This document shows, piece after piece, positions 4,299-35,552 of a DNA stretch of 53,876 nt. The notes below the pieces were generated by a model. The model saw only the letters and a list, made by a program, of their open reading frames with translations. It was not told where the DNA came from and did no database searches. The translations under genes and the position numbers were made by a program. The stretch covers positions 1-53,876 of the forward strand of contig JAVYKI010000001.1 in assembly GCA_038742305.1 (NCBI GenBank), written 5' to 3'. Numbering within the stretch: the first letter of the stretch is position 1; every line of letters begins with the position of its first letter. The stretch is from Candidatus Aenigmatarchaeota archaeon. GTDB lineage: Archaea > Aenigmatarchaeota > Aenigmatarchaeia > CG10238-14 > SpSt-28.

Positions 4299-4719
4299 AT
4301 TCAAAAAGAAAAGGAGAAGAGGAGAAAGAACGTATCATGGAAGACATGGTTATCCTAGAGGCGGCGGCTCAAGAGGAGGAAGAGGTAATGCTGGATTACA
4401 TAAGCACAAATGGCTTCATACAATTAAATATATGCCAGACCATTTTGGAAAAGAAGGCTTTAGAAATCCTAACAAGAGAAAAATAAAAGTTATTAGTTTA
4501 AGAGAGCTTGAAGAAAAAATAGAGGAATTTATTAAAAACGGATATGCAATAGAAAAAAACGGAAAAATTGAAGTTTTTTTAAATAAAGCTGGTTATGATA
4601 AATTAATTTCGAGCTCTATAAAACTAAGCAGGAAATATATTATACATATTCCACATGCTTCTGAAAAAACCATTAATAAAATTAAAAGTTTTGGAAGCGA
4701 AATAATAATTGAAAAATGA
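4288..4719 (+). CDS. rpl15: ribosomal protein uL15
   Basis: Basic Gly-rich N-terminus RRRGERTYHGRHGYPRGGGSRGGRGNAGLHKHKW. Sits immediately upstream of secY, as in the conserved archaeal operon. Confidence 0.85.
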   Translation: MVVRFKKKRRRGERTYHGRHGYPRGGGSRGGRGNAGLHKHKWLHTIKYMPDHFGKEGFRNPNKRKIKVISLRELEEKIEEFIKNGYAIEKNGKIEVFLNKAGYDKLISSSIKLSRKYIIHIPHASEKTINKIKSFGSEIIIEK

Positions 4720-6119
4720 TAGAAAAGATTGCAAATTATATTCCTGTTATTGAAAAACCAAAAACAAGTTTAACTTTAAGAGATAAATTTAAGTGGTTTT
4801 TAATAATTGTTGCTCTTTATTCCTTGCTTAGTAATATAGAAACGATTGGAGTTTCCCCACTAGTTTCACAAGATCCAATAACTTATTATTTTTCTTTATT
4901 ATTAGGAGCAAGAATTGGTTCAATTTTTTCTTTAGGTATTGCACCTTTAATTACTGCAGGAATAATTTTACATGTATTAACTTCTTCAAAAATATTAAAT
5001 TTAGATTTGCAGAATCCAGAAGATAGAAAAAAATATGAAAATTATGAAAAGGTTTTGGCTTTGTTTTTTGGTATAGTAGAAGCTTTTATAATTATTTATT
5101 CTGGATATTTGCCTATATTGCCTGGCTTTACTTTCATTGTTTTTCTTCAACTGTTGCTAGGAGTTTTTCTAATATTAATTTTCCATAGCCTTGCAAAAAA
5201 ATATACTTTTGGAGCTGGAATAATTAACATTGCTATTTTTAGCGGAGTGGCAACTCAGCTTATAATATTTTTATTTAGTCCTTATGCACTAACTACTTCA
5301 GGCTTTGTTCTTTGGTTCAAAGAAAATGAAATACCTTCGGGGCATGTTCTTCAATTAATAATTTCCCTTTTAAATAAAGATTTAAATCTTTTTGTTTTAG
5401 CAATAGTCCCTATAATATCTACTTTAGCAATTGTTTTATTAACACTTTATTTGCTAAATTCAAAAATATACGTTGGTTCTTTAGAATTTAAAATGATGAG
5501 AAGCATTAAGCAACCTTTCGAGCTTAATCTTTTATATGTAAGTGTTTTACCAATAATTTTTGCTTCTTCTTTTCTAGTTATCCTCAGCTTTGCAGCTTCA
5601 TCTACTTTAACTATCCAAACCGGAAATTTAAGATGTGGAATTTTTGGATGTGTAGATTTGAACGGAAATCCTGTAAGCGGATTAATTTATTATATTACTC
5701 CTCCCAATCCTATTTATGCTACTCAAGAACCTCTAAAAGAAGTTACAAGAGCTATAATTTACTTTTTGCTTTTAACAGCTTTAACTACTATTTTCGGATT
5801 TATGTGGGTTTATAGTGCAGGAATGGACCCAAAAACTGTTGCTGAAAATTTAGTAAATAGCGGAATGACGATCAGCGGTTTAAGAGATAATCCTTCAATA
5901 TTAGAAAATTTCCTGAAAAATTATATACCATACTTAACATTTTTAAGCTGCTTTTTAATTTCTTTAATAGCAATTTTAGCAGATTTACTTGGAGCATTGG
6001 GAGGAAGAAGCGGAGTAAGCTTGTTCTTATTAGTTTCAGTAATTTATAGCTTCCATATGATACTAAAGAGAGAAAAATCAGAAAACATACCAAAAGCTCT
6101 AGAATATTTTATTAAATGA
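4716..6119 (+). CDS. secY: preprotein translocase subunit SecY
   Basis: 467 aa with about 10 TM segments. Position after uL15. Start overlaps the uL15 stop (ATGA). Confidence 0.9.
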   Translation: MIEKIANYIPVIEKPKTSLTLRDKFKWFLIIVALYSLLSNIETIGVSPLVSQDPITYYFSLLLGARIGSIFSLGIAPLITAGIILHVLTSSKILNLDLQNPEDRKKYENYEKVLALFFGIVEAFIIIYSGYLPILPGFTFIVFLQLLLGVFLILIFHSLAKKYTFGAGIINIAIFSGVATQLIIFLFSPYALTTSGFVLWFKENEIPSGHVLQLIISLLNKDLNLFVLAIVPIISTLAIVLLTLYLLNSKIYVGSLEFKMMRSIKQPFELNLLYVSVLPIIFASSFLVILSFAASSTLTIQTGNLRCGIFGCVDLNGNPVSGLIYYITPPNPIYATQEPLKEVTRAIIYFLLLTALTTIFGFMWVYSAGMDPKTVAENLVNSGMTISGLRDNPSILENFLKNYIPYLTFLSCFLISLIAILADLLGALGGRSGVSLFLLVSVIYSFHMILKREKSENIPKALEYFIK

Positions 6120-12293: not shown

Positions 12294-12691
12294 GTTATAC
12301 TAATTTCATCGTTAACTTTACTAATAAAAATGTTGCAGATTAAATTTTCTATACATTCTAAACTAGTTTCTTTTAGTTTAATATAAGAAGGTTTAAAAAG
12401 TTTTGAAGCATAAAAATTTTTTTCTAGGCTAACTGTAACGTTTTCAGAATAAATGTTTATTTTCAAATTTTTTGGTGGCAACTTAATAATAAGCGAAACG
12501 TTATAGCTAGAAGAAAATATATTATTTAAAATTGAAGCTATTGTTTCTGCTGCAAGCTTAGATTCAAACCAACTCCTTTTTAAAAAGAAAAACAAAATTA
12601 TTTGGAAACCATAAATTAAAATTATTGATATAAACAACATTGAGAAAAAAAGAATTAAGTAAGTAATAAATGCTGAAGCTTTTAGGACCAT
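12290..12691 (-). CDS. prepilin-like small protein
   Basis: MVLKA|SAFITYLILFFSMLFISIILIY is a class III-like leader with Lys at -2 and Ala at -1. 133 aa. Confidence 0.5.
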   Translation of the reverse strand: MVLKASAFITYLILFFSMLFISIILIYGFQIILFFFLKRSWFESKLAAETIASILNNIFSSSYNVSLIIKLPPKNLKINIYSENVTVSLEKNFYASKLFKPSYIKLKETSLECIENLICNIFISKVNDEISIT

Positions 12692-15381
12692 TTCGCTAAT
12701 TCTGGCAAGTTTTTATAAACATATGGCCAAGACATTACCCCCTCTCTAAAAGTTAACATTCCTATTCCGAATAAATCAGCTATTAGTTCGCAATGGTCAA
12801 TCGCTGGACCTGCAGAACCTAATAAGCAAGCTTTTATTGCGCCTGCCGTTCCAGTACCTAGAGTTAAAACTGCGCAAACAGAAGCGATAATACATCTTCC
12901 AATAGTTTCTGAAGATTCTGAAGCAATATATGCATTAACATAATTTTCATAAGCATAGCAATAATTTGGATTTTTATTTTTATCTAGCAAAACTTCTACA
13001 AAAATTTTATTATCTTCTATGTATATTTGAGCTTTTCCGTAGCATGGACTAACTAAATAAAATCTAGGATCTTTAGCTACCCAACTATCTCTTTTTAATC
13101 TAACTTCTTCTATTCCAATTTCTTGACAACTTTTTGGCAATTCAAATTGTCTAACGCATGCACCTAACTGAGAGCAAATTTTTCCTTCTTCACATTCGGT
13201 TTGACAACCATATGGCATTTTTTGACCTTCATAGCCATAGTAAGAAAGTAGTTTATCCCAATAACTTGCACCTATAGGAGTATTTAAATCCAAATATCTA
13301 AAAATTGAATAACCAATTGCTCCTCTTCTAAAGAAAACTTGTAAATCTTCTTTTATTCTCAATTGTTTTCCATTAAGCAGGTTTACAAACATTTCAATTT
13401 CTTTTTTATCTTCTTGCTTAAAAATTTCAAAGAAATATTCTCTCAAAGCATCTTTAACTTCTTTTGGATTTGCTTTTGGGCCGAGCTTATCCAAAATATT
13501 TGCAAGCTTAGTATCTTTTTCTACAACTATTCCAAAGCTATGGGACATTTTATCTTTTAAGTTATTAAGTTTATTAATTATTTGATCTAAACTCATTCCG
13601 CTATACTTTTCGATTTTAGCAATAAGCTCTAGGTCTGTATTTTTTTTCTTGATTAATTCGTTAATAACTTCATCTGCGAAATCTTTAACAACTGTATTTG
13701 GAATTATCTTATTGTGCAAAAATGCTTTTTCTTCTAAAAGTGCTAAGTATTTCTTTATAGGTTCGGAAAAAGTTTGTTTTAATATTTTTGAAAAAGATTC
13801 TTCTGGATCGTAAATTACTTTTACAAGATTTCCATCAGCATCATATTCAAGCCTAAAATTTCCTAACCTTTCCAAAAGTTTATTAGTTTTTTGCTTGTAA
13901 TATTCTGCATAATTTTTGAAATCTTCAAAATATTCGTTTCCCTCATCTATATAAAGATTTCCGTTTTCAACAACTTTAAATCCTTTATTTATTAGAGCTG
14001 CTTCGCTTGGCTTATCTGCAATTTCTTCTGGCAACTTATCCAATACTCCTTTAACTTCTTCTAATTCAACTATTCCTTCAGAAAGTAATTCTAAAAATTC
14101 GTTCTCATTTAGCTTTTTTGTTATATAATTTATTTCAGAAGAAATCAAATCTAGCTCCGTATTAACAAAAAATGCCCTTATTCTATACTCTTCTTCATCC
14201 GGTAAATTTTTCAATAAATCTTTTATTTCGCCTACTTTTTTATTAATTTCTTCTAATTTTTCTTTTGCTTTTTGCCATTCTTTATTCTCTATAGCACTTC
14301 TATATTCATCCAAAAGATTATTAGCACTGTCTAATTTTTCAGTAACTTCTTGCTCTATATCACTTATATCTTTACTAAAAAGTTTTTCTTTAAAATACTT
14401 TAGTCTTAAGCTTATAGTATCTTTGGCATTTAAGAAAAATTCTTTAATTTCTCCTTTTACTTGATAATAGAGTTTATCTAATTTTCTTTTAAAATATGGC
14501 CACACCATTTCTTTAGAAATTATTTTAGTAACGTCAAGAAGTACTGCAGAAGATATAGATAAAGTTAAACATTGTTCTAAAGTCATATTTTGAGTAAATA
14601 AGCACACTAAGGTTAAAAATCCGGCTGCTTTACTAATCCAAATTACTTCTTCTTTTCCAGACTCAATATATTTTATTGTTATTTTTATTTTTTCTCCAAC
14701 TTTTGCTGCATAAATTTCTATTTTTTCCAGCTTTTTAACCAAAGTTTCAACTCCTTGCATTATTTCGTTTAATTCTTTTAAGTGTGGCTTTAGTTTATCT
14801 AATATCTCCTCTTTAATTCTTGTTGATAATTCCTGCCTAAACTTGAAAAATCCTTTTTCTAATAAGTTTCTCATATTTTTAGCACCTATTAAATCAAAAT
14901 TTAAGAAAAATGTATAAGTAGCTAAGGAAAATAGTAAATTAGAGCTCCAAGGCAGATCTTCTTGCCAAGGAATAAATACTGCAGCTAAAGTTCCTGCTAA
15001 GCCGGAAATTCCTTGCTCTGTAACATCTAAAATATCATACGGCGGCTCTGGAGGAAAAAATTCCCAATAAAACTTATAATAAGGGTCTCCAAAAATTTGA
15101 AGTGGAAGTTTTTCCTCTTCTAATTTTATCATTCTTTTAAATTCATCAAAAACGTTTGCAAAAGTTTTTTGGGGCAATTCTATATAAACTTCTTCAGGAT
15201 AATCTTTACTAGCTTTTCTATTACATGCAACATCTAAAGCACTATAAAATTTATTAAAGCTTCTTTCAACTATTCTATCGCTTTCATTATGTATTACAAA
15301 CCACCAAAAAAGAAAGCCAATTAATGCTGCAATTCCTACTCCAATAAAAAATCTTATACCAACTTCACTCAAATTTTTCAT
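12682..15381 (-). CDS. large membrane / coiled-coil / Cys-rich protein, unknown family
   Basis: 899 aa. N-terminal TM, further hydrophobic segments near residues 120-170 and 250-290, a long K/E-rich helical middle, a Cys-rich block (PYGCQTECEEGKICSQLGACV...) and a C-terminal hydrophobic Gly/Ala/Cys segment. First gene of the operon. Confidence 0.6.
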   Translation of the reverse strand: MKNLSEVGIRFFIGVGIAALIGFLFWWFVIHNESDRIVERSFNKFYSALDVACNRKASKDYPEEVYIELPQKTFANVFDEFKRMIKLEEEKLPLQIFGDPYYKFYWEFFPPEPPYDILDVTEQGISGLAGTLAAVFIPWQEDLPWSSNLLFSLATYTFFLNFDLIGAKNMRNLLEKGFFKFRQELSTRIKEEILDKLKPHLKELNEIMQGVETLVKKLEKIEIYAAKVGEKIKITIKYIESGKEEVIWISKAAGFLTLVCLFTQNMTLEQCLTLSISSAVLLDVTKIISKEMVWPYFKRKLDKLYYQVKGEIKEFFLNAKDTISLRLKYFKEKLFSKDISDIEQEVTEKLDSANNLLDEYRSAIENKEWQKAKEKLEEINKKVGEIKDLLKNLPDEEEYRIRAFFVNTELDLISSEINYITKKLNENEFLELLSEGIVELEEVKGVLDKLPEEIADKPSEAALINKGFKVVENGNLYIDEGNEYFEDFKNYAEYYKQKTNKLLERLGNFRLEYDADGNLVKVIYDPEESFSKILKQTFSEPIKKYLALLEEKAFLHNKIIPNTVVKDFADEVINELIKKKNTDLELIAKIEKYSGMSLDQIINKLNNLKDKMSHSFGIVVEKDTKLANILDKLGPKANPKEVKDALREYFFEIFKQEDKKEIEMFVNLLNGKQLRIKEDLQVFFRRGAIGYSIFRYLDLNTPIGASYWDKLLSYYGYEGQKMPYGCQTECEEGKICSQLGACVRQFELPKSCQEIGIEEVRLKRDSWVAKDPRFYLVSPCYGKAQIYIEDNKIFVEVLLDKNKNPNYCYAYENYVNAYIASESSETIGRCIIASVCAVLTLGTGTAGAIKACLLGSAGPAIDHCELIADLFGIGMLTFREGVMSWPYVYKNLPELAKWS

Positions 15382-15508
15382 AATTAATGATTATCAATAA
15401 ATATTAATAAAGAAAGCCAATTAATGCTGCAATTCCTACTCCAATAAAAAATCTTATACCAACTTCACTCAAATTTTTCATAATTAATGATTATCAATAA
15501 ATATTAAT
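15309..15508. repeat. perfect 100-bp tandem duplication (2 copies)
   Basis: 15309-15408 and 15409-15508 are identical base for base. Each unit holds the first 72 nt of the 899-aa gene, its ATG, and the 27 bp up to the FlaJ-like start codon. Confidence 0.95.
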
Positions 15509-17500
15509 ATGGATGTTAATAAAATTATTGAAGAATATGAAAAATCAAAAAAATTAAACTTTTATGAAAAGTTTTGCAACTTTTCTTATAACATTTTAAA
15601 GTTTAAACTTTCTCAAGAAGAATTGGAAAAATTTGAAGAAGTAAATAAATTTTGTAGGTTAAAAATTTATCCAGCTTCAAATTTTTCTGCTTCTATTCTT
15701 TTCTTTTTAATTTCCTTTTTCTTTTTAGTTTTCTTATCTTTCTTTATCCCATTTTCAATCCTTTTCTTTTTATTTACTCTTTTTACTTTTATTAGTTTTT
15801 TAATTTACTACTATCCTTTCTTACTAGCTAGAATAATAAGAAGCGTTTCTAGCTCAGAAATAATGCATGCAATAATTTACATGTCAATTTCTTTAAAACA
15901 AGTTCCAAACTTAGAAAGAGCAATAATTTTTACAGCTTCAAACTTGCATGGTTATGTTGGATTAGATTTTAAAGAATTAGCTTCAAAAATAGTATTTGGT
16001 CAAGAAAGTGCTAAAAGCGGATTAATGAAAATAATTGATAAATGGCAAAAAGAAGCTAAAGAGTTTGGAGAAGCTTTAAAAATTTTAATTTCTTATTCTG
16101 AAAATCCTTATTCAGATAAAATGTTAGAAGAAGCTGTAAGAATTGTTCATGAAGACACTTTTTCAAAATTAGAAAAATATTCTAGAAGCTTAAAGCTGCC
16201 TTCAACAATAATTTTAGGATTGGGAATTATTTTGCCTCTGCTTTCTTTAACAATTTTACCTTTATTCTCTATTTTCTTTCCTAGTATTCTTTCTTTTAAC
16301 GTTTTAATTATAATTTTTAATATTTTAATTCCAATACTTTTATTTTCTTTTATTTTAACTATTACTTCTTCTAGGCCATTAACTAGTTCTTATTTATTAA
16401 TAGAAGACCCATTTAAAATTAAAATTGGAAATTATAATTTAAATTTAATTTTAGTTTTATCTTTTATTTCTTTATTGCTTTTTCTTCCTCTCTTTTTAGA
16501 TTTTCTTAACTCTTCGAAAAATTATGAACTTTGTGCAGTATGGTTTTCTACAAAATTTTCAGAATTAAGAAAGCCTCAAGAATTAAATTTAAATAGAGAA
16601 GAATGTTTAGAAATATTGCAAAATACAAATTTCTTATCTTCTGCTTTTCCTTTAATACTTTTAATTTTGCCTTTTTCACTTTTAATTTTTAAAATAAGGA
16701 AAATTTTGTTTATAAGAGAAAGGACAGAAAAAATAGAAAAAGAGTTTAGTTCTGTTATATTCCAAATAGGTTACTATTTGAAATCTGGGAATACTTTAGA
16801 AACCGCAATATTTAAAGGAATTGAGAAATTCGAAAAGTTTGAAATTAGAAAGTTTTTTGAAAAAATTTTATCAAACTTGAGAGTTTACGGAAATTTAAAA
16901 GAAGCTATTTTTGGAGAAAAAGGAGCTATAAAAGATTATCCTTCAACTTTAATTAAAAGCTTTTTTGAAGTAATTGTAGAAACTTATAAAAGAGGTTATT
17001 ATTTTGCTGGAGAAGCCATGTTAAAACTTTCAAGCTTTTTGAATAGTTTGTATAAGCTACAAGATAAAATTGAAGAATTAATAAGTGATGTAGTAAGCAA
17101 TTTAAAATTTATTTCAGTTTTTTTAGTTCCAATAATTACTGGAGCTGGAATTTCATTAGCAATAATTCTTGTTTCAATACTAAATTCCATAGCATTAAAA
17201 TATTTAGAAATTCCTATTTCAAATGAAACAACAATTCCAATTTCTTTACCATTTATTTCTTTTTCTAATGTTGTTCCAATTTATTCTGGCTCTTTAGTTT
17301 TTTCTTTAGGACTTTTTGTGATAGAAATTGTATTAATTTCTAGTTTCTTAATAGTTAGTTTGGAAAAAGGTTTTGAAAAGTATTACTTTATTTCTTCTTC
17401 TATAAAAAACGTTTTAATTGCAATAATATTTTACTTATTAACAATACTTTTCTCTTCTTTCCTAATTCAACCTTTAGTTTCTACTATAACTCAATTTTAG
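15509..17500 (+). CDS. FlaJ/TadC/PilC-like type IV filament platform membrane protein
   Basis: 663 aa. Two helical cytoplasmic blocks with the T2SS-F domain pattern (SEIMHAIIYMSISLKQVPNLERAIIFTASNL... and EFSSVIFQIGYYLKSGNTLETAIFKGIEK...LRVYGNLKEAIF), each followed by TM clusters. Confidence 0.65.
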   Translation: MDVNKIIEEYEKSKKLNFYEKFCNFSYNILKFKLSQEELEKFEEVNKFCRLKIYPASNFSASILFFLISFFFLVFLSFFIPFSILFFLFTLFTFISFLIYYYPFLLARIIRSVSSSEIMHAIIYMSISLKQVPNLERAIIFTASNLHGYVGLDFKELASKIVFGQESAKSGLMKIIDKWQKEAKEFGEALKILISYSENPYSDKMLEEAVRIVHEDTFSKLEKYSRSLKLPSTIILGLGIILPLLSLTILPLFSIFFPSILSFNVLIIIFNILIPILLFSFILTITSSRPLTSSYLLIEDPFKIKIGNYNLNLILVLSFISLLLFLPLFLDFLNSSKNYELCAVWFSTKFSELRKPQELNLNREECLEILQNTNFLSSAFPLILLILPFSLLIFKIRKILFIRERTEKIEKEFSSVIFQIGYYLKSGNTLETAIFKGIEKFEKFEIRKFFEKILSNLRVYGNLKEAIFGEKGAIKDYPSTLIKSFFEVIVETYKRGYYFAGEAMLKLSSFLNSLYKLQDKIEELISDVVSNLKFISVFLVPIITGAGISLAIILVSILNSIALKYLEIPISNETTIPISLPFISFSNVVPIYSGSLVFSLGLFVIEIVLISSFLIVSLEKGFEKYYFISSSIKNVLIAIIFYLLTILFSSFLIQPLVSTITQF

Positions 17501-17616
17501 CTAAAAATTTTTATTAATTCGCTTGCAAAATCTTTCAAATATAAAGCAAAAAATATTGCAAAAGCTATTAAAATTATTAAAACTATTATTGCAATTATTA
17601 GCTTAACTTTTTCCAC
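17497..17616 (-). CDS. micro-protein 7 of array, single TM (GTG start)
   Basis: (M)EKVKLIIAIIVLIILIAFAIFFALYLKDFASELIKIFS*, 39 aa. Overlaps the stop of the preceding micro-ORF. The GTG start makes it the least certain member. Confidence 0.4.
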   Translation of the reverse strand: MEKVKLIIAIIVLIILIAFAIFFALYLKDFASELIKIFS

Positions 17617-17749
17617 TCCAAGGCTTAGGTATTTTTATATTTTTTATTATCTCCCAAACTTTTCCTGAAGAAAAAACTAAGTAAACAACTATTATAATTA
17701 TTATCAAAAGAATTATTCCGAAAACTAGCCAAAGTTCGTCTTCTATCAT
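17603..17749 (-). CDS. micro-protein 6 of array, single TM
   Basis: MIEDELWLVFGIILLIIIIIVVYLVFSSGKVWEIIKNIKIPKPWSGKS*, 48 aa. ATGA overlap with the upstream micro-ORF. Confidence 0.55.
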   Translation of the reverse strand: MIEDELWLVFGIILLIIIIIVVYLVFSSGKVWEIIKNIKIPKPWSGKS

Positions 17750-17907
17750 TTTTTAATTCCAATTATTTCTAAAAACTTTGATAAATTGAAAATATCGCCT
17801 ATACTTCTTATTCCTTGCTCTTTGCTCAAGTTTATTATTACTAAAATTATTATAAAGACTAATACTGCAATTATTATTACAATAATTAGCCAAATTGTTT
17901 GCTCCAT
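17746..17907 (-). CDS. micro-protein 5 of array, single TM
   Basis: MEQTIWLIIVIIIAVLVFIIILVIINLSKEQGIRSIGDIFNLSKFLEIIGIKK*, 53 aa. Confidence 0.55.
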   Translation of the reverse strand: MEQTIWLIIVIIIAVLVFIIILVIINLSKEQGIRSIGDIFNLSKFLEIIGIKK

Positions 17908-17913
17908 AATATA

Positions 17914-18093
17914 TTAAACTGAAATAAAAACATTACAAAATATTCCTAACGGTCCAAAAATTAAGTTGCAAATTTCTGCTAGTGCTTTTCCAGTTTCTGG
18001 ATTTAAAATTGAAAAAATTATTAAAACAAAAAACATTAAGCCTATTAGCACTAAAATTATAACTATAAAGTTTCTTATAGAAAACTCTATCAT
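17914..18093 (-). CDS. micro-protein 4 of array, single TM
   Basis: MIEFSIRNFIVIILVLIGLMFFVLIIFSILNPETGKALAEICNLIFGPLGIFCNVFISV*. The track ORF 17914..18111 uses a TTG start. The internal ATG at 18093 gives an ATGA overlap with the upstream micro-ORF. Confidence 0.6.
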   Translation of the reverse strand: MIEFSIRNFIVIILVLIGLMFFVLIIFSILNPETGKALAEICNLIFGPLGIFCNVFISV

Positions 18094-18269
18094 ATCATAA
18101 AAACTTCGCAAACTTTTGGATTAGCAAGTATTTTTGCTACAGTTAAAAGGCATATTTCTTTTGCTACTATTGCAAACCTTTCTGGAAAAATTAAACCTAG
18201 GAAAACTATTAAAATAGTTGAAAAAATTAATATTGTAAGAATTATAATTACCAAAAGCTTTACTTCCAT
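18090..18269 (-). CDS. micro-protein 3 of array, single TM
   Basis: MEVKLLVIIILTILIFSTILIVFLGLIFPERFAIVAKEICLLTVAKILANPKVCEVFMI*, 59 aa. Confidence 0.55.
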   Translation of the reverse strand: MEVKLLVIIILTILIFSTILIVFLGLIFPERFAIVAKEICLLTVAKILANPKVCEVFMI

Positions 18270-18412
18270 TATTTAAAAATTTTTTCTATAAAGTTTGCAA
18301 TATATTCTGGAAGTTTTGAAAAATCGAAAGAACTAAAAAGTAAAATAACAATTACTGCTACTATGATTATAAAAAATATTATTACGTAAACTAATTCAAA
18401 CGGCAATTCCAT
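18269..18412 (-). CDS. micro-protein 2 of array, single TM
   Basis: MELPFELVYVIIFFIIIVAVIVILLFSSFDFSKLPEYIANFIEKIFK*, 47 aa. Its stop shares one base with the next ATG. Confidence 0.55.
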   Translation of the reverse strand: MELPFELVYVIIFFIIIVAVIVILLFSSFDFSKLPEYIANFIEKIFK

Positions 18413-18529
18413 TTAACTAATATGCAAAGATAAAATTTTAAAATAGTAAATAGCTATTAGGATTAAGATTATTAGGATTAAGATTCCTAAGCCAATGAAA
18501 ATTGCATTTTTAATTGTGCTTTGCTCCAT
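18413..18529 (-). CDS. micro-protein 1 of array, single TM
   Basis: MEQSTIKNAIFIGLGILILIILILIAIYYFKILSLHIS*, 38 aa. Its stop directly abuts the next ATG. Confidence 0.5.
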   Translation of the reverse strand: MEQSTIKNAIFIGLGILILIILILIAIYYFKILSLHIS

Positions 18530-18551
18530 AATAATATTTATGAATTATTAA

Positions 18552-18647
18552 GGGGCCGTAGTCTAGCTAGGCAGGACGGCGGGCTCCAGAGCGAGCTCTG
18601 AAAAATGAAGAAACCCGCTAACCTGGGTTCAAATCCCAGCGGCCCCA
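18552..18647 (+). tRNA. trnW: tRNA-Trp (anticodon CCA) with a 23-nt intron at the canonical 37/38 position
   Basis: Acceptor GGGGCCG/CGGCCCC plus discriminator A. D arm GTCT-AGCTAGGCA-GGAC. Anticodon stem GCGGG/CCCGC with loop CT-CCA-G[intron]A. T arm CTGGG-TTCAAAT-CCCAG. No encoded CCA. Confidence 0.9.
18590..18612 (+). other. tRNA-Trp intron
   Basis: agcgagctctgaaaaatgaagaa lies between position 37 (G18589) and A38 (18613); the boundary is ambiguous by one A. Intron CUCUG (18596-18600) can pair with CAGAG, which spans the anticodon and the 5' splice site. Confidence 0.75.
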
Positions 18648-20224: not shown

Positions 20225-20659
20225 ATGTACAAGCATTTAATCTGCTTAAAGTACGAAGATTAGCTTGAAACTATACGACAGCTTTTACACAATCCAGAAA
20301 TAAAAGAAGTATGTATAACAAGCGGAAATCTTGTAGTAAGAAATAGAGACGGAAGAAAAGAAGTATACTATGCTTCTCATCTTTCAAAAAATATACTAGA
20401 AACTTTATTTAGAGAAGAAATTTCAGAATTGTGTAGTGCCTACGGTTTAATTTCATGCAACGAAATTAAAAACTCGGGAATAAGCTTAGAAACTTTAGCA
20501 AAAATCATAAGCGAGCTCTCCATAAAAGTTCAATTGAGAAATTTTGAAGATCCTAGAAAAGGTAGATATATTATAAACTCTAACGATTTGGATGAATATC
20601 TTTGGAGAAAGTTATCCGAAGGAAATCTATCAAGAGCTGTTAGGGAGTTGCTAAGGTAA
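20225..20659 (+). pseudogene. unknown-function ORF interrupted by one in-frame TAG (20261-20263)
   Basis: The ATG at 20225 gives MYKHLICLKYED, then TAG. The same frame continues as LETIRQLLHNPEIKEVCITSGNLVVRNRDGRKEVYYASHL... to the TAA at 20657-20659. The track ORF 20429..20659 is only the tail, from an internal TTG. Confidence 0.45.
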
Positions 20660-21487
20660 TTACACTATTCCTATCTTTATTTTCTCTTTTTCATAATTTC
20701 CGATTAACTTCTCCACATACCCTAAAATTTGTCCTTTATAAAATTTTCTTATTTCAGATTGTTTTAATTCTTTCAATTTTTTCTTTTGTAAAAACTTTAA
20801 AACAAAGTTATATAAATTATAATCTTCTAGAAATCTTTTCATACCTTCAGAAGGAAATGGCCATTTTTCAGCTAAATACTCAAAACTACCGAATAAAATT
20901 CCTTCATAAAAGGTTTCTTTCCCAACTTCTTTTTGATATGAATCTATAATTAATAAAGAAAGTTTTCTTTGAAATTTCACATCCTTCTGAAAATCGTTTA
21001 ATTCTAAAGCCTTTTTTACTTCTTTTAAGTCAGAAGAAACTTTTTCTTTAAAACTTCCAAAACCCTTTTCCCCAAATAAATAATCGTAGAATAATCTTAC
21101 ATAGTAGACATTTTGAGTTAGAGAATCTATTACAAATAATATTTGGTATGCAAAAGTAATAAATTTCGGCAAATAATCAGAATGTTCAGAATCTAAAACT
21201 CTGAACTTTTGAGTAATAAGTTCGTAAACATCTGACCAAGAATCAAAGCTTTTCATAATTGCAAATAAACCGCTTTCCTGCAAATTTCTATTTATAGAAA
21301 AGAGAATGGAATCTTGGCTTTCTGGATTAAGATATTTAATTAATTCCTCTAAATCTTCCATTCTTTTTTTCCTTGTAAATCTATTTACTAACCAAGCTAG
21401 CCAAGTATTCTTGGAATTCAATTCATCAAATAGAGAGTTTAAAGTGCTAAACACTATTTCTCTAGCCAGCTGTGTAACTCTTTCCAT
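20660..21487 (-). CDS. hypothetical protein, no recognisable family
   Basis: 275-aa clean ORF, predicted soluble and helical. Convergent with and abutting the TAG-interrupted ORF. Confidence 0.55.
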   Translation of the reverse strand: MERVTQLAREIVFSTLNSLFDELNSKNTWLAWLVNRFTRKKRMEDLEELIKYLNPESQDSILFSINRNLQESGLFAIMKSFDSWSDVYELITQKFRVLDSEHSDYLPKFITFAYQILFVIDSLTQNVYYVRLFYDYLFGEKGFGSFKEKVSSDLKEVKKALELNDFQKDVKFQRKLSLLIIDSYQKEVGKETFYEGILFGSFEYLAEKWPFPSEGMKRFLEDYNLYNFVLKFLQKKKLKELKQSEIRKFYKGQILGYVEKLIGNYEKEKIKIGIV

Positions 21488-22397
21488 TTATTATATAACT
21501 ATGTTATAAATCTATAAAAGCCTTTTCCTTATGCTAAACTGCTCCATCTGGGTAAACAGATTTATAAAATAAACTAAAACAACCTACTTTTCGAACAGAT
21601 TTATTCCTTATTCTATTGGCTTAATAGCTTATTGTTTATTATTTACTTTTAAATGAATACTTTTCTGTAAATCTCTCACTCTCAGTTCTTTTCTTAAAAC
21701 CTACCACTGGCCTAGTAAGCCAGTAGTCATTTTTAAGACTTGGACTAAGGAATTGAACCAAAGCTAATTTGCATAATTTTAAGGTTTTAGCATCCTTAGT
21801 AAATACTATAAGTATTGCCGTTAAAATGTATTCACCTCTTTTAAGTAATATCTAATATGAAAAATATATAAAAGAATATATAAATTTTTTATTTTATGCT
21901 TTTGAGCCTTTTATATGAATTTTTTTCAGTTTCAAAAAGAATACTAAAGAGTAATAAAATTGTTAAGTAATTCTTATTTTCAAGTAATAAACACAAATCT
22001 AAATTAAAAAAGTGAGAGTTAATATGATCTGTAATTACTTATAATTAGTTAAAAAATCTTAATTAGAAATTAATAAGCGTTTGACTAGCAGATATTAAGT
22101 GAGATATACAAGTTTTTCTTTCTACTTTTTGTTCAAAACTTTACTTTCTTAACATACTTAGATTGTGAGAATTTAGATTAGTAGATTTACTACTGCAGAA
22201 GAGTATTTAACATTAGAATTAAAAATGGTGTGTGAACAAAAAACTTCTTAAAAAAGTTACAAAGCTTTATATTCTTCATGATATTAATTCATTTTAATTC
22301 TTGTAATTGGAAAATTAATACGATAGTGTGGGTAGGGGAAAAGCGAAATTTCACTCCCAAAAAATAATTGCAAGTATTTATTAAAGTAAGAAAACTA

Positions 22398-22607
22398 TAT
22401 CTGTTTAAGCGCTTAAGCGGATATTTTTATCTGCTTGAACTGCTTAAGCAGTTGCTTGAAGCGCTTAAACAGATATTAATAATTTTTTGCTTGCGCTTAT
22501 AAGCGCTTAAGCGGATATTAAGAAGAAAATTTAGTTTTTTTCTCGAAATATAACGATTTGTTTATCCGCTTATAAGCGCTTAAGCGGTTAAGCGGTTCAA
22601 GCAGATA
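22398..22607. repeat. array of CTTAAG-centred palindromes / inverted repeats bounded by TATCYG...CRGATA
   Basis: Perfect palindromes: AACTGCTTAAGCAGTT (22438-22453), GCGCTTATAAGCGC (22493-22506) and CGCTTATAAGCG (22567-22578). An imperfect 26-bp palindrome TATCTGTTTAAGCGCTTAAGCGGATA lies at 22398-22423. GCGCTTAAGCGGATAT occurs twice. The array is visibly GC-richer than its flanks. Confidence 0.85.
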
Positions 22608-22776
22608 ACTATAGCATTTAATTATACACCAAACTTTTGAATAAAACTTCAATAATCCACACATAAAAGTGCTCCATGTGGTACATTTAAAAATTAAAAA
22701 ATAAAAATTTCAAACCTGTCATCGTGCTTAATCTTTATAGAAAAATATTTTTCTATTCTTGCCTTATTTTTATTCT

Positions 22777-23292
22777 TTACTTATTAGTAGCTTCGTTAAA
22801 ACTTTTTTCCTCACCCTTATAGATTAAATAACCTCGCTTTCCCTTAATAGTTTTTTCAACATCGGGAACTTCATTTATACTTAATATATACCTTAAGTAA
22901 GAAGTAGAAATGTTCAATTCTTTGGCCAATTCTTCATAGCTAACTTCTTTCTTATTTTTGACAATTTCCCTAATTTTATCTATCATTTCGCCTTTTATTT
23001 TTCCTATTTTTACGCTAATCTTTTCATTTATATCTGCCAATTTTTCCAAGAGTTTATTTATATCATCTTTAGTTGAAAGGTTTAACAATAGCCATTCTTT
23101 TGTTGCCATGTTTGCCTCTATTCTAGCTAAAGAATCTTCAATATTCCTAATTGACTTTAAAATATAGCCTAAAGCCATTTGCTGACTATCATATGGCAAA
23201 GCAGGTTTAATTTCTTCGGATTTTTGCTCTTCCTTAATTTCCTCTGTTTTAGTTCTAGAAAAGAATTTTTTTAATTTATCTAATATGCTCAT
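22777..23292 (-). CDS. coiled-coil protein with C-terminal helix-turn-helix
   Basis: VSYEELAKELNISTSYLRYIL is an HTH-like segment near the C-terminus. 171 aa. Confidence 0.55.
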   Translation of the reverse strand: MSILDKLKKFFSRTKTEEIKEEQKSEEIKPALPYDSQQMALGYILKSIRNIEDSLARIEANMATKEWLLLNLSTKDDINKLLEKLADINEKISVKIGKIKGEMIDKIREIVKNKKEVSYEELAKELNISTSYLRYILSINEVPDVEKTIKGKRGYLIYKGEEKSFNEATNK

Positions 23293-23294
23293 AA

Positions 23295-23558
23295 TTAAAT
23301 AATTTCTTGCAACTTTTTAATTTTCCAATAATTCATGAACTTTTTAAAATCTATATCTTCCCTTAATTTAACTAATTTTAATCTAAAAGGTAATTGCTGT
23401 ATTTCTACAAAAGGTAAAAAATATTTAGATAAAAGCCTTGAAACTGTTTTATGGTTTAAATTAGCTCTTCTTGCAATTTCCCTAATCCAAATCCAACCTC
23501 TTGCTTCTTTTAAAACTTTAAAAATTTTGGCAACATTTAATGCTTCGTCTTTTCTCAT
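23295..23558 (-). CDS. small winged-HTH DNA-binding protein
   Basis: WIWIREIARRANLNHKTVSRLLSKY is HTH-like. 87 aa. Confidence 0.55.
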   Translation of the reverse strand: MRKDEALNVAKIFKVLKEARGWIWIREIARRANLNHKTVSRLLSKYFLPFVEIQQLPFRLKLVKLREDIDFKKFMNYWKIKKLQEII

Positions 23559-23698
23559 GAAAAGAGTTTTTCAATAGCTAGAATAAAACAATTACTTCCT
23601 TCTTCACAAATTTTTAATTTTGAAGTTAGTGAATCTAAAAGTAAAACTATTGCTAAACCAAGAACTATTATTAGCATTATTATACTCAAATAGTCCAT
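23555..23698 (-). CDS. micro-protein, single TM, coupled to the HTH genes
   Basis: MDYLSIIMLIIVLGLAIVLLLDSLTSKLKICEEGSNCFILAIEKLFS*, 47 aa. ATGA overlap with the 87-aa wHTH gene. Confidence 0.4.
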   Translation of the reverse strand: MDYLSIIMLIIVLGLAIVLLLDSLTSKLKICEEGSNCFILAIEKLFS

Positions 23699-31769: not shown

Positions 31770-34700
31770 ATGGAGCTAAAGTTAAGAGTCGGAGAATTAA
31801 CTGCTAAAGAAGAAGCTTTTAGAGGATTAGTAAGAATAGATTTAAATAATTTAGTAAAAATTGGAGTAAGAGAGGGGGAAATTGTTGAAATTGAAGGAAA
31901 AAGGAAAACTGCTGCAATTGCATTAAAAGCTTATCCTGCAGATATCGGCTTAGATATAATAAGAATGGATGGAATTACTAGAAGAAATGCAGGAGTTGCT
32001 GTTGGAGAATTTGTTACAGTAAGAAAAGCTGAAGTAAAAGAAGCAAAAAAAGTTGTATTAGCTCCTGCTGAAGCAAAAATAATTACTGCTCATCCTCATT
32101 ATTTAAAGCAAAGTTTATTAAGAAGGCCTTTAGTTAAAGGAGATATAATTGTTCCTAATCCTGTTTCTAGAAGAGATGAATTTTTAGAAGCACTTTTTGG
32201 TTTTGATATTGAAGATTTCTTCTTTTCACCTTTTCCTCAAGTAAGGCTTTATGTTGTTAATACAGAGCCAAGCGGAATAGTTGTTGTTACAGAAAATACT
32301 GTTATAGAATTATTAAGAGAAAGACCAAAAGCATTGGAAATTGAAGAAAGAGGAATTCCAAGAGTTACTTGGGAAGATATTGGCGATTTACAAGAAGTTA
32401 AACAAAAACTTAGGGAAATGATAGAATTACCAATAAGACATCCAGAAGTTTTTGAAAGATTGGGAATTGATCCTCCAAAAGGAGTTTTGCTTTACGGTCC
32501 TCCAGGAACAGGAAAAACATTATTAGCAAAAGCTGTTGCAAATGAAAGTGGAGCATATTTTATATCTATTAGCGGTCCTGAAGTTACAAGTAAATGGTTT
32601 GGGGAAAGCGAAAAGAAATTAAGAGATATATTTGAAGAAGCTTCTAAAAATGCTCCTTCAATAATTTTTATTGATGAAATTGATGCAATTGCTCCGAAAA
32701 GAGAAGAAGTTGTTGGAGAAGTAGAAAAAAGAATTGTTGCTCAGCTTCTGGCTTTAATGGATGGGTTAAAAGAAAGAGGAAGAGTAATAGTTATTGGAGC
32801 AACTAATAGACCGAATGCTTTAGACCCAGCATTAAGAAGGCCTGGAAGGTTTGATAGAGAAATTGAAGTTCCTCCACCAGATGTTAATGGAAGGTATGAA
32901 ATATTAGTAATTCATACTAGAAACATGCCAATTAATCCTTTTGTAAAGCACTATGTAATTGAAGAATTAAAAGAAATGAATAGAGAAGATTTAATTAAAA
33001 AAGTTGAAGAATTAAAAGATGAAAATGAAATAAGAATGTTTATTTATAAAGAGCTTGAAAAAGAAGCTCCTCAAATTGAAAAGAAATTAAGAGAGAAAAT
33101 GTTAAGATGGTTAGCTGAAATTACTCATGGCTATGTTGGTGCTGATTTAGCTGCTTTAGCTAGAGAAGCTGCAATGCATGCATTAAGAAGAGCATTACCA
33201 GAAATTCAAAAGTTTAAAGAAGAAGAGGAAATTCCAAAAGAAGTTCTTGAAAAGCTTTTTGTTACTAAAGAAGATTTTGAATATGCATTAAAAATTGTTC
33301 AACCAAGCGCAATGAGAGAGGTTTTTGTTGAAGTTCCAAAAGTTAGATGGCAAGATATTGGTGGATTAGAAGAAGTTAAGCAAGCATTAAGAGAAGCTGT
33401 TGAATGGCCATTAAAATATAGAAAGTATTATGAAGCTCTCGGAATTAAGCCGCCAAGAGGAATTTTGCTTTATGGTCCTCCTGGAACAGGAAAAACATTA
33501 TTAGCAAAAGCTGTTGCGACAGAAAGTGGTGCTAACTTTATTGCAATTAAAGGCCCAGAAATATTTTGTTTAGATGGTAATGTACCAATAATTTCAAGTT
33601 TATGCGGATTAGAAAAAATAAGTAAATTCTATGAAAAAGTAAAAGAATTTTCAGAAGTTATAAAAGATAAAAACCTAGAAATTTTAGTTCCTAAAAAAGA
33701 AATTTTAGTTCCTTCCTTGAATAATAAAACTAGAGTAAAAAAAGTTTATAAACTTTTTGTTGAAAATGTTATAAAACTCAAAATAGAAAAGAATTCTCAA
33801 GAAATAATAGTATCTGCAAATCAGCCATTTTTAGCATATAAAAATAATGAAATAAAATGGATAAGAGCTGGTGAATTGGAAGAAGGAGATTATATTGCCT
33901 ATCCAGTTAAGATACCGAGCTTTAATCTAGAAATTAATCTAGAAGTTCCGAAGTACAAACACTTAAGAATAGTTAAAGAAGATGAAGACTATTATTATGT
34001 TAAAATATTTTCTTCAAAATCTATTACTAGATTACCAAAAAAGTTGAATGAAGATGTTGCAGAATTCTTAGGATGGTTTGCAGCAGAAGGTAGTATTAGC
34101 AAAGAAAAGAAAACTGTTTATATTTGTAATGGAAATGAAGAAAATATTAAAAGAATTGTTGAACTTTTCTCCATTTTTGTAGATAAAGAAAGAATAAAAG
34201 TTGATAGAAAAGGAAAAAGAGTAATTGTACATTCCATGCCGCTAATAGTTTTTCTAGAAAAAATTTTTGAGCAAAACTTAGAAAGAAAAGCTAGAAAAGT
34301 TAAAGTTCCTTCTATAATTTTTAAGGCTAATGAAAAAATAATTTCTGCTTTCTTAAAAGGATTATACAGAGGAGATGGCCATATCAGAAAAACAAAAATA
34401 GAACTTGGAACTATGAGTAAAAACCTTGCTAGAGGAGTATCTTATTTATTAACAATATTAGGAATTAGGCATAGAGTTTGGAAAAGCAATGCATATTTTG
34501 TAAGTATTTATGGAGAAGAGGATATAAAAGAATTTTTAGAAAAAGTTTTTGGAGAAAAAAGAAGTTTTAGAAAAAGAAAATATTATAATGCGAGATTAAT
34601 AGTTCCAGATGTCTCTTCAATATTAAGGGAATTAAAAAACAAGTATAATTTAAGGTATGAAAAAGAATTACCAGAAGGTTTGTTTGAAGCAGTAATTTCT

Positions 34701-35552
34701 AAAAGGACAAAAGCAAGACTAAAAAGATTAAGAAATATGATAAAAGTTCTAGAGAAGTTTGTTAAAGAGAATGATTTAAAAGTCTTAAAGTTTATAGTAG
34801 AAAGTCCTATACTTTGGACAAGAATAGTTAAAAAAGAAAAGGCTGAGCCAAGATTTATGTATGATTTGGAAACTGAAGACGGAATTTTCGTTGGGGGATA
34901 TTATCCATTGTTACTACATAACAGTAAATTTGTTGGCGAATCTGAGCGAATGATAAGAGAAATATTTAGAAAAGCTAGGGAAGTTGCTCCTTGCGTAATA
35001 TTTATTGATGAAATTGATGCAATTGCTCCAATGAGAGGATTAGAAGTTGGAACAAGAGTAACTGAAAACGTTGTTGCACAATTGTTAACTGAAATGAGCG
35101 GAATTCAAGAATTAAAAGATGTTGTTGTAATTGCTGCGACAAATAGGCCAGATATTTTGGACCCAGCAATATTAAGGCCTGGAAGGTTTGATAGATTAAT
35201 ATATGTTCCTCCTCCAGATGAAAAAGCTAGATTAGAAATTCTAAAAATTCATACTAGAAACGTTCCTTTAGCAAAAGATGTTGATTTAAAAGAAATAGCA
35301 AGAAAGACTGAAAATTATAGTGGAGCAGATTTGGAAGCATTAGTAAGAGAGGCTGCAATTCTTGCATTAAGAGAAGCTATAGAGAAAAACAAAGATCCAA
35401 AAGAAGTTAGAATGAAGCATTTTGAAATTGCATTAGAAAAAGTTAAACCATCTATTTCAAAAGAAATGATTGAATTTTATAAGAGATTTGAAGAAAGGAT
35501 GAAAAAAAGATTAATTGAAGAAAAAGAAAGAAAAGAAAAATATATTGGATAA
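31770..35552 (+). CDS. cdc48: CDC48/VCP-type AAA+ ATPase (two AAA domains) interrupted by an intein
   Basis: N-domain plus D1 ([26 protein letters not shown]) and D2 ([17 protein letters not shown]...VIFIDEIDA). The D2 sequence is split between GPEIF and SKFVGESE by 452 aa. Confidence 0.95.
33567..34922 (+). mobile_element. intein with LAGLIDADG homing-endonuclease domain in CDC48 D2
   Basis: Starts with Cys (CLDGNVPI) and ends LLLHN, followed by Ser+1. LAGLIDADG blocks [10 protein letters not shown] and [12 protein letters not shown]. Block F/G-like [19 protein letters not shown]. 1356 nt, in frame. Confidence 0.9.

Follow-up and report, generated by a model that had tools for sequence, protein, structure and literature searches.

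A 210-bp array of short palindromic boxes at positions 22397-22607 of the chromosomal fragment analysed here (53,876 nucleotides, below called the window) appears, on comparison of sequences, to be a single-copy, evolutionarily maintained cis-acting DNA element, and most likely serves as a DNA landing pad on which a dimeric, sequence-specific protein can dock at several sites. The host is an A+T-rich DPANN archaeon (Aenigmatarchaeota), and the sequencing runs bearing the locus are mostly hot-spring metagenomes. The array is real, it is present in a single copy, and a second species keeps it beside the same small DNA-binding-protein genes; thus, of the functions considered, docking of a protein is the most likely one.

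The window encodes EF-2, SecY, a fused PriS-PriL primase, ThyX, Alba, Pth2, ribosomal proteins, and a topoisomerase, as well as an intein-containing Cdc48, eRF1, FtsY, and the RFC large subunit. The array resides in the longest ORF-free gap of the window (1289 bp, positions 21488..22776), between two transcription units that are both on the minus strand. GC content equals 34% in the array, 24% in the rest of the gap, 60% in the tRNA encoded in the window, and about 26% in the window as a whole. When 210-bp segments are scored for inverted 8-mers, self-complementarity within the 53.9 kb is highest at positions 22397-22607: the mean for the whole window is 7.1 (sd 6.5), whereas segments covering the array reach 80-86, and the 15 best segments all overlap it. 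The same concentration is seen for individual motifs, as four out of four copies of GCTTAAGC in the window, and likewise four out of four copies of AAGCGCTT, fall inside the array. A dyad weight matrix derived from the half-sites yields five array sites with scores of 22.9-35.2, the best site elsewhere in the window scoring 11.3. The duplex-stability profile and GC skew were also tried as markers of the array, and neither singles it out.

The repeating unit, GCTTAAGC, is a palindrome of 8 bp, and its copies follow one another head-to-tail every 8-9 bp; the box variants are GTTTAAGC, GCTTAAAC, GCTTGAAC, and GGTTAAGC, and the 10-bp GCTTATAAGC. The boxes are mostly paired as a 16-20-bp dyad, CYGYTTAAGC·GCTTAARCRG (the dot marks the dyad centre), capped by TATCYG/CRGATA; in total, five strong dyads and extra boxes form two inverted-repeat modules. 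Dyads centred on AAGC·GCTT are found at 22410/11, 22462/63, 22504/05, and 22577/78. A preceding inspection of this DNA, made without database searches (below, the sequence-only reading), had listed many of these elements, and on rechecking all of them exist where it had placed them: three perfect palindromes of 12-16 bp, namely, AACTGCTTAAGCAGTT (22438-22453, 16 bp), GCGCTTATAAGCGC (22493-22506), and CGCTTATAAGCG (22567-22578), a 26-bp imperfect palindrome (22398-22423), the duplicated GCGCTTAAGCGGATAT (22409-22424 and 22503-22518), and a weak upstream half-copy, AGCAGATATTAAG (22087-22099). It had also given the distance from the array to the 3' end of the adjacent operon as about 170 bp, and the array indeed lies 170 bp downstream of the stop codon (22777) of the gene encoding a 171-aa protein. 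Of its seven end motifs in alternating orientation, all seven positions stand (TATCYG caps at 22398, 22428, and 22563; CRGATA caps at 22418, 22470, 22512, and 22602), but the alternation is not strict, since 22470 and 22512 share orientation. One more perfect palindrome, TTAAGCGCTTAA, occupies positions 22405-22416.

Elements E4 and E3 make up module A (22397-22476), a compound palindrome of 80 bp (DNA fold z -10.4) whose inverted arms, at 22397-22414 and 22459-22476, match perfectly over 18 nt. E4 (22397..22424) is a 28-bp imperfect palindrome, ATATCTG-TTTAAGC·GCTTAAG-CGGATAT, that consists of two contiguous 8-bp palindromic boxes (GTTTAAGC-GCTTAAGC, 22403-22418) and the caps TATCTG and CGGATA; its dyad, CTGTTTAAGC·GCTTAAGCGG at 22401-22420, has a score of 35.2. 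E3 (22428..22476), a 49-bp compound element extending from TATCTG to CAGATAT, holds the palindrome AACTGCTTAAGCAGTT and the dyad TGCTTGAAGC·GCTTAAACAG at 22453-22472, and shows a period-21 repeat (TRF). In module B, the left arm E2 (GCTTGCGCTTATAAGCGCTTAAGCGGATAT, 22487..22518), with the dyad GCTTATAAGC·GCTTAAGCGG at 22495-22514, and the right arm E1 (TATCCGCTTATAAGCGCTTAAGCGGTTAAGCGGTTCAAGCAGATA, 22563..22607) are inverted relative to each other and bracket an A+T-rich spacer of 44 bp (22519..22562, about 20% GC). E1 contains a tandem run, TAAGCGGT, with a period of 8 and 3.6 copies (22573-22602, TRF), and two dyads, at 22568-22587 and 22576-22595. The array is identical in near-identical strains, two assemblies breaking within it; a variant seen in one strain, G22587C, turns GGTTAAGC into an additional perfect GCTTAAGC.

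No other copy of the array was observed in the 54-kb window or, at ≥80% identity, in four whole metagenome assemblies (170-500 Mb), each of which contains one locus. The sequence-only reading had raised the possibility of a dispersed, MITE-like repeat; such a repeat was searched for in the window and in the four assemblies and not found, and, because there is no second copy at ≥80% identity in the four assemblies, the array is not a MITE. A pattern scan with two copies of the motif produced no match in the viral collection or in the GTDB genomes, the GCTTAAGCGCTTAAGC pattern had no match in the viral collection, BLAST of the array against plasmids retrieved no match, and a literature search for the array motif returned primers only. 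Scanning metagenomes for three GCTTAAGC boxes identified at least 120 loci, which represent an unrelated family with TCTCGCTTAAGCTAGA every ~20 bp in ORF-free DNA; the AAGCGCTTAAGC signature is absent among the at least 120 three-box loci listed.

Several features nevertheless recall a relic of a mobile element, MITE-like and with terminal inverted repeats, or recombinase sites around an invertible spacer: the outer arms (22422-22447 and 22588-22613) are 88% complementary, the 7-bp AACTATA is present on both flanks (22394-22400 and 22607-22613), and assemblies often break within the array. This explanation is contradicted by the copy number (one in 54 kb and, at ≥80% identity, one per assembly in four), by the presence of the array at the corresponding, orthologous place in a species whose proteins are 61-82% identical, and by the results of several searches, as no transposase, integrase, or invertase gene was found nearby, no alternative joints were seen among contigs, and no viral, phage, or plasmid relatives were found in the collections searched. 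We consider it highly improbable and already largely refuted.

The array lies downstream of a three-gene operon that encodes a 47-aa membrane peptide, an 87-aa winged-helix protein, and a 171-aa coiled-coil HTH protein. The first gene (23555..23698, minus strand) encodes a single-pass membrane peptide, conserved among relatives. The product of the second gene (23295..23558, minus strand) is a compact winged-helix protein with the H-H-H-beta-beta-H order of elements (pLDDT 90). Its identity across five lineages is 75-82%, that of the flanking VTT gene being 58-70%, and its invariant segment LNHKTVSRLL spans the third helix, which is presumably the DNA-reading one. In a Foldseek search with the model of this protein, only generic winged helices were retrieved (MarR family, AF1382, ST1889, AspA, and the Cdt1 C-terminal domain; E from ~3e-3 to 2e-2); the best TM-scores, 0.68-0.70, belong to Cdt1 C-terminal winged-helix domains, and AspA of pNOB8 is among the structural neighbours at ranks 23, 27, and 35 (E ~1e-2). 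The family comprises 28 clusters at E ≤1e-3 among 1.84 billion representatives; none of its members convincingly passes a curated Pfam cut-off, and only weak generic HTH matches were seen.

In the 171-aa protein (22777..23292, minus strand), an N-terminus of low complexity precedes two long helices; the HTH at its C-terminal end (approximately residues 115-148) is recognised by weak HTH_11 and HTH_3 matches, and the model is of low confidence (pLDDT 64). It is a near-orphan with a single homolog (61% identity) in 5.8 billion proteins, and its HTH segment, SYEELAKEL.IS.SYLRYILSI, hardly differs between the two species. A perfect 20-bp palindrome, ATAGAAAAATATTTTTCTAT (22737..22756), lies 20 nt past the stop of this gene and is followed by T-runs on the minus strand, and this region probably represents the termination zone of the operon. 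The next gene downstream of the ORF-free gap encodes a 275-aa orphan protein (20660..21487, minus strand). No matches were obtained when the 171-aa and 275-aa proteins were compared with plasmids, and the 87-aa protein with phages, by BLAST, or when alignments of the 87-aa and 171-aa proteins were used to scan the viral collection; searches of PDB sequences, PHROGs, and NCBIfam gave nothing informative on the neighbouring proteins, and in the GTDB genomes the VTT neighbour has no close relative. Homologs of this VTT protein bear the name Candidatus Aenigmatarchaeota.

A partial orthologous array is available from a second species, where the comparison relies on one 1.4-kb contig (L005) that ends inside the array. 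The sequence-only reading had suggested looking for the array beside homologs of the genes at 22777-23558 elsewhere, and here the same layout is indeed found downstream of the same operon. The contig carries the same membrane-peptide tail, the 87-aa gene (82% identical), and a 177-aa gene for the 61% identical HTH protein, followed, in the same order as in the window, by the conserved block described below, two box clusters separated by a spacer, and a second compound palindrome, within which the contig stops. GCTTAAGC is unchanged in L005, and GCTTAAGCGCTTAAGC is perfect there twice, whereas the spacer sequence, spacer length, and number of boxes have changed: the spacer is about 75 bp long, compared to 44 bp in the window, and the two sequences are unrelated. 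The distance from the conserved block to the array also differs between the species (74 vs. 89 nt). The two-module fold is seen in both (z -7.8 in L005 and -8.0 in the window), and the arms keep the same sequence with no co-variation, as would be predicted by sequence-specific recognition and not by mere maintenance of a hairpin. Judging by this comparison, the array appears to be under selection for the box sequence and the dyad layout. Helical phasing of the dyad centres (52, 42, and 73 bp) was considered as well and dropped, as the second species, with 98 bp, does not share it.

Three further lineages have orthologs of the 87-aa protein, with 75-77% identity and LNHKTVSRLL invariant, beside the VTT-Pth2-S14 genes; the contigs of these lineages stop 25-58 nt past the 88-aa ortholog and have no adjacent 171-aa gene. 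The cluster of the 88-aa ortholog also includes proteins encoded on contigs of 16, 8, and 7.5 kb, and a family member with 40% identity is located on a 253-kb MAG contig at NCBI. In more distant Aenigmatarchaeota (VTT 52-54% identical), neither the operon nor the array was found. A distant homolog of the 87-aa protein (45-47% identical, helix HQTVSRLI) was placed on another contig, where ORF-poor DNA adjoins its gene and four copies of a 16-bp palindrome, TGTTAnACGTnTAACA, occur beside it, 0.01 copies being expected. The geometry of TGTTAnACGTnTAACA is 5+6+5, the same as in GCTTA-AGCGCT-TAAGC, and in this one case the copies are near the starts of neighbouring genes.

The strong folding of the array could also indicate a structured non-coding RNA or a transcript leader, the modules forming long hairpins of a plus-strand (operon-antisense) or a minus-strand transcript. 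In line with this, both strands fold strongly (z -7.3 and -8.3), the two-module hairpin layout is retained in the second species, T-runs follow module A on the plus strand, and the promoter-like block faces the array on the minus strand. Moreover, the fold of the plus strand (-85.6 kcal/mol, 12 G·U pairs) is 9 kcal/mol more stable and richer in G·U pairs than that of the minus strand (-76.7 kcal/mol, two G·U pairs), and the second species shows a weaker difference in the same direction. The sequence-only reading had preferred protein-binding DNA sites on the ground that the mismatches are not consistently G-U compatible on one strand, which is doubtful given the 12 G·U pairs of the plus-strand fold, where most mismatches are in fact compatible with G·U pairing; as this argument fails in the form in which it was made, the RNA explanation is weakened by other arguments only. 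The Rfam scan of the window at the gathering score detects tRNA only, and for the array it gives no hit at this score and, at E ≤10, only generic miRNA-hairpin models (E 0.3-8). The array has 34% GC vs. 60% for tRNA of the same hot-spring organism, its helices are loopless perfect palindromes, typical of dimer-binding DNA, the arm sequence is the same in the two species compared, with no compensatory change, and the number and spacing of boxes vary. An RNA function seems improbable to us. Reads of this organism, even from Alba, tRNA, and EF-2, are absent from three raw-read metatranscriptomes and one RNA-contig set of the same studies, so these runs are uninformative on transcription of the array. 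The preference for protein-binding sites thus loses its G-U argument and gains support from the conserved boxes and layout and from the HTH helices.

Between the T-rich end of the operon and the array there is a conserved block, GTACCACATGGAGCACTTTTATGTGTGGATTATTG (22650..22684, minus strand), carrying CCACATGGAGCA at 22681-22670; its stretch GTACCACATGGAGCACTTTTATGTGTGGATTA (minus strand, 22684-22653) is nearly identical in the second species, the block measuring 30 nt in the comparison with L005. The block is followed by a TATA-like TTTTATTC at 22646-22639. A second copy of the block in the same orientation (21520..21555, minus strand) carries CCAGATGGAGCA at 21551-21540, and the core of the block, CCAnnTGGAGCA, occurs in the window only twice, both times within the gap and on the minus strand. 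The second copy of CCAnnTGGAGCA precedes the start codon (ATG) of the 275-aa gene by 53-64 nt, and GGAAAAGGC-TTTTATAG are then found at -32 to -25 of this gene, that is, at the BRE/TATA position for a leaderless mRNA. TATA-like T-rich octamers are present at the matching offset in the first copy of the block and in L005. From this sequence context, the first block may be a promoter or an upstream element facing the array, a suggestion that is weak in DNA of 24% GC. The CCAnnTGGAGCA block has what we take to be a loose likeness to the ORB dyad, which we treat as a lead only.

If the array is a landing pad, dimers of a sequence-specific DNA-binding protein would fill the boxes cooperatively, as MetJ does on met boxes, so as to assemble one large nucleoprotein complex at the locus. 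Two proteins encoded immediately upstream are the candidates: the 87-aa winged-helix protein would be the most likely binder, and the 171-aa coiled-coil HTH protein may act with it. This proposal is favoured by the DNA-reading helices of both HTH proteins, invariant or nearly so between the two species, and by the distant winged-helix homolog, which also lies beside repeated 16-bp palindromes. Most likely, such a complex would regulate transcription through the gap that separates the HTH operon from the 275-aa gene: it would stand directly before the promoter-like block (CCAnnTGGAGCA and the TATA-like element), which points into the array, and thus could occlude or roadblock this promoter. Against such gating, dyads are absent from the promoters of both the operon and the 275-aa gene, no ORF follows for 1.1 kb past the putative promoter, five dyads per 210 bp are heavy for a simple operator, and the block and the array are not equally far apart in the two species. 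Taken as a whole, the chain in which the array is a landing pad for the neighbouring winged-helix/HTH proteins and gates the promoter-like block is tentative, and we would give it somewhat less than an even chance.

The setting of the array also suggests a replication origin, where a lineage-specific winged-helix protein or a distant Orc1/Cdc6 would act as the initiator, binding the box clusters, inverted on either side of a spacer that would unwind; the replicator-initiator pair could have been captured from an extrachromosomal element. WhiP serves oriC3 of Sulfolobus; ORBs are longer than the array boxes and asymmetric, and, judged by eye, the short perfect tandem palindromes of the array differ from them and count against an origin. 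ORB sequences and their initiators are diverse, and one origin uses WhiP (PMC4010727). Consistent with an origin, the array is a single locus in the longest ORF-free gap of the window (1289 bp), inverted clusters flank an A+T-rich spacer in both species, and the genes next to the array are orphans, as captured DNA would be expected to carry. Furthermore, a tract within the gap about 500 bp from the array (21837-21897, 10% GC) ranks among the top three 60-bp tracts of the window for ease of melting, and the top TM-scores of the 87-aa model are those of Cdt1 C-terminal winged-helix domains. On the other hand, no Orc1/Cdc6 was detected in the window or in the 4 kb beyond its right end (Pfam/NCBIfam, flanking genes and large ORFs), cumulative GC skew follows the gene strand and does not turn at 22.4 kb, and the spacer, with about 20% GC, is not more A+T-rich than the gap at 24%. 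In addition, the Foldseek matches are to generic winged helices with E ~1e-2, and collections of plasmids, phages, and viruses yielded no relatives. The contig depths are flat. Taking these observations together, we regard an origin as unlikely. More specifically, by analogy with WhiP and Cdt1, one might imagine an Orc1/Cdc6-independent replicator-initiator module of DPANN, with the boxes around an unwinding spacer, the clade-specific 87-aa protein in the role of WhiP/Cdt1, and possibly tethering by the membrane peptide; this version is decidedly doubtful.

The same small proteins may be viewed as parts of a centromere-like or chromosome-organising site, at which the array would nucleate a small-protein complex for segregation or membrane tethering. 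Iterated short dyads beside an operon of small DNA-binding proteins resemble plasmid centromeres, AspA, the centromere-binding protein of pNOB8, is among the structural neighbours of the 87-aa model, there is a single locus per genome fragment, and the membrane peptide is co-transcribed and conserved. However, no NTPase of the ParA, SegA, ParM, or TubZ type is present in or near the operon, and the match to AspA is no better than many matches to MarR-type proteins. Besides, the array is downstream of the operon and thus cannot double as the operon operator, unlike what is seen in type Ib and II systems. A role of this kind seems rather improbable.

To our knowledge, almost nothing is known about cis-acting elements, transcription factors, and replication origins of DPANN archaea, which are uncultivated and have tiny genomes, and we know of no element of this kind studied in the host lineage. 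In such a host, the locus is well suited to an inexpensive test, since a short DNA fragment shows an evident motif grammar and the two candidate binders are small, soluble, and conserved in their putative DNA-reading helices. If this pair binds, a new winged-helix family of about 28 clusters would acquire a known operator, and there would be a handle on the role of the longest non-coding gap in the genome fragment. If the array were an origin or a centromere, it would be, as far as we know, the first such element described in DPANN; if it is an ordinary operator cluster, the result amounts to routine annotation.

Comparison with known systems shows partial similarities to several of them. In archaeal oriC, ORB/mini-ORB repeats stand on both sides of an AT-rich element that unwinds, with orc1/cdc6 or whiP close by (PMC4010727), and the array, too, is a single locus in a long intergenic region with inverted dyads around an A+T-rich spacer. 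Unlike in oriC, its boxes are short perfect tandem palindromes, its neighbours are an 87-aa winged-helix and a 171-aa HTH protein of no known family and no Orc1/Cdc6 gene, the A+T content of the spacer is close to the background, and a skew signal is lacking. With the AspA site of pNOB8, ParR-parC, and the omega heptads, the array shares short iterated sites beside genes of small dimeric proteins, but, in contrast to these partition centromeres, the locus is chromosomal, is situated downstream of the operon, and has neither a partition NTPase nor plasmid or virus relatives. Iterons of theta-plasmids were rejected as a model, since these are 17-22-bp direct repeats accompanied by a rep gene, whereas the units here are 8-bp palindromes in a mixed arrangement, and no Rep-like protein or plasmid relatives were found. 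The repressors of the MarR and PadR type are similar in that the fold of the 87-aa protein matches theirs and the array dyad has the typical operator size (16-20-bp palindromes); the differences are that the 87-aa protein has no MarR dimerisation helices and belongs to no Pfam family, and that the array contains five dyads in 210 bp vs. one or two at a promoter.

The organisation of the boxes is best compared with that of the MetJ met boxes, tandem 8-bp palindromes AGACGTCT bound cooperatively by ribbon-helix-helix dimers. The MetJ system differs in the box sequence, and the array belongs to an archaeal host, is arranged in inverted modules with TATCYG caps, and has its boxes not at an annotated promoter; no ribbon-helix-helix family was detected in the neighbouring proteins, where the candidates are winged-helix/HTH proteins. 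The array is not a member of the MetJ system. At the same time, both have an 8-bp palindrome placed head-to-tail in two to four repeats with degenerate copies, which implies a dimer per box and cooperativity, and, by this analogy, the grammar of the array would work like that of the met boxes.

The palindrome array (22397-22607) is bounded on either side by the 7-bp sequence AACTATA, at 22394-22400 and 22607-22613, an arrangement resembling a target-site duplication; in contrast to this appearance, the array is single-copy and an orthologous array is present in the second species. Between 22410 and 22578, the centres of the AAGC-GCTT dyads are separated by 52, 42, and 73 bp, that is, by 4.95, 4.0, and 6.95 helical turns. 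This near-integral spacing may be a coincidence, since the phasing is not retained in the second-species contig (L005), where the interval is 98 bp. We also observed a G/C-rich patch, GTGTGGGTAGGGGAAAAGCGAAATTTCACTCCC, at 22325-22357, 40 nt from the compound palindrome of module A and set in a spacer of otherwise 24% GC; strain variants G22338A and G22374A fall in and near this patch.

A perfect 20-bp palindrome, ATAGAAAAATATTTTTCTAT, lies at 22737-22756, 20 nt past the stop codon of the gene encoding the 171-aa HTH protein, and is followed by T-runs on the minus strand; it may represent either a termination zone or a further binding site. On contig L142, the palindrome TGTTAnACGTnTAACA occurs four times (3522-3537, 4532-4547, 4719-4734, and 4819-4834; 0.01 expected) adjoining the gene of a protein distantly homologous to the 87-aa winged-helix protein, the copies being situated in ORF-poor DNA, close to the starts of neighbouring genes.

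Elsewhere in the window, a 100-bp tandem duplication (15309-15509; 2.0 copies, 100% identity), either genuine or an assembly artefact, spans the upstream region and the first ~24 codons of an 899-aa gene (12682-15381, minus strand) and directly adjoins the start of a 663-aa T2SSF-like gene. A 1051-bp stretch without ORFs (17501-18551) precedes a 96-nt tRNA gene (18552-18647; Rfam, 54 bits), for which ARAGORN reported "ccag" with the anticodon not assignable; this gene probably contains an intron. Convergent with the 275-aa gene is a 76-aa ORF (20429-20659) that yielded no match in profile searches, and the C-terminal half of its product (RYIINSNDLDEYLWRKLSEGNLSRAVRELLR) looks ribbon-helix-helix-like by eye. 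An intein that carries a homing endonuclease domain of the LAGLIDADG type splits the gene of the Cdc48 AAA ATPase (31770-35552). In a related lineage, positions 1690-2700 of contig L137, after the S14 gene, hold the beginning of a G+C-rich 23S rRNA-like segment, which seems to be interrupted by a 149-aa LAGLIDADG-type ORF.

Arrays of GCTTAAGC in JGI metagenome contigs (L008, L035, L062, L069, and many more among the matches listed) constitute a separate family, unrelated to the array of the window. In this family, the unit TCTCGCTTAAGCTAGA is repeated 6-10 times with a period of ~19.6 bp, and degenerate CTCGCTCAAGC repeats are found ~250 bp from the TCTCGCTTAAGCTAGA run. As no ORF of at least 90 aa is present over the 5.5 kb of L069, this contig is probably eukaryotic non-coding repeat DNA.
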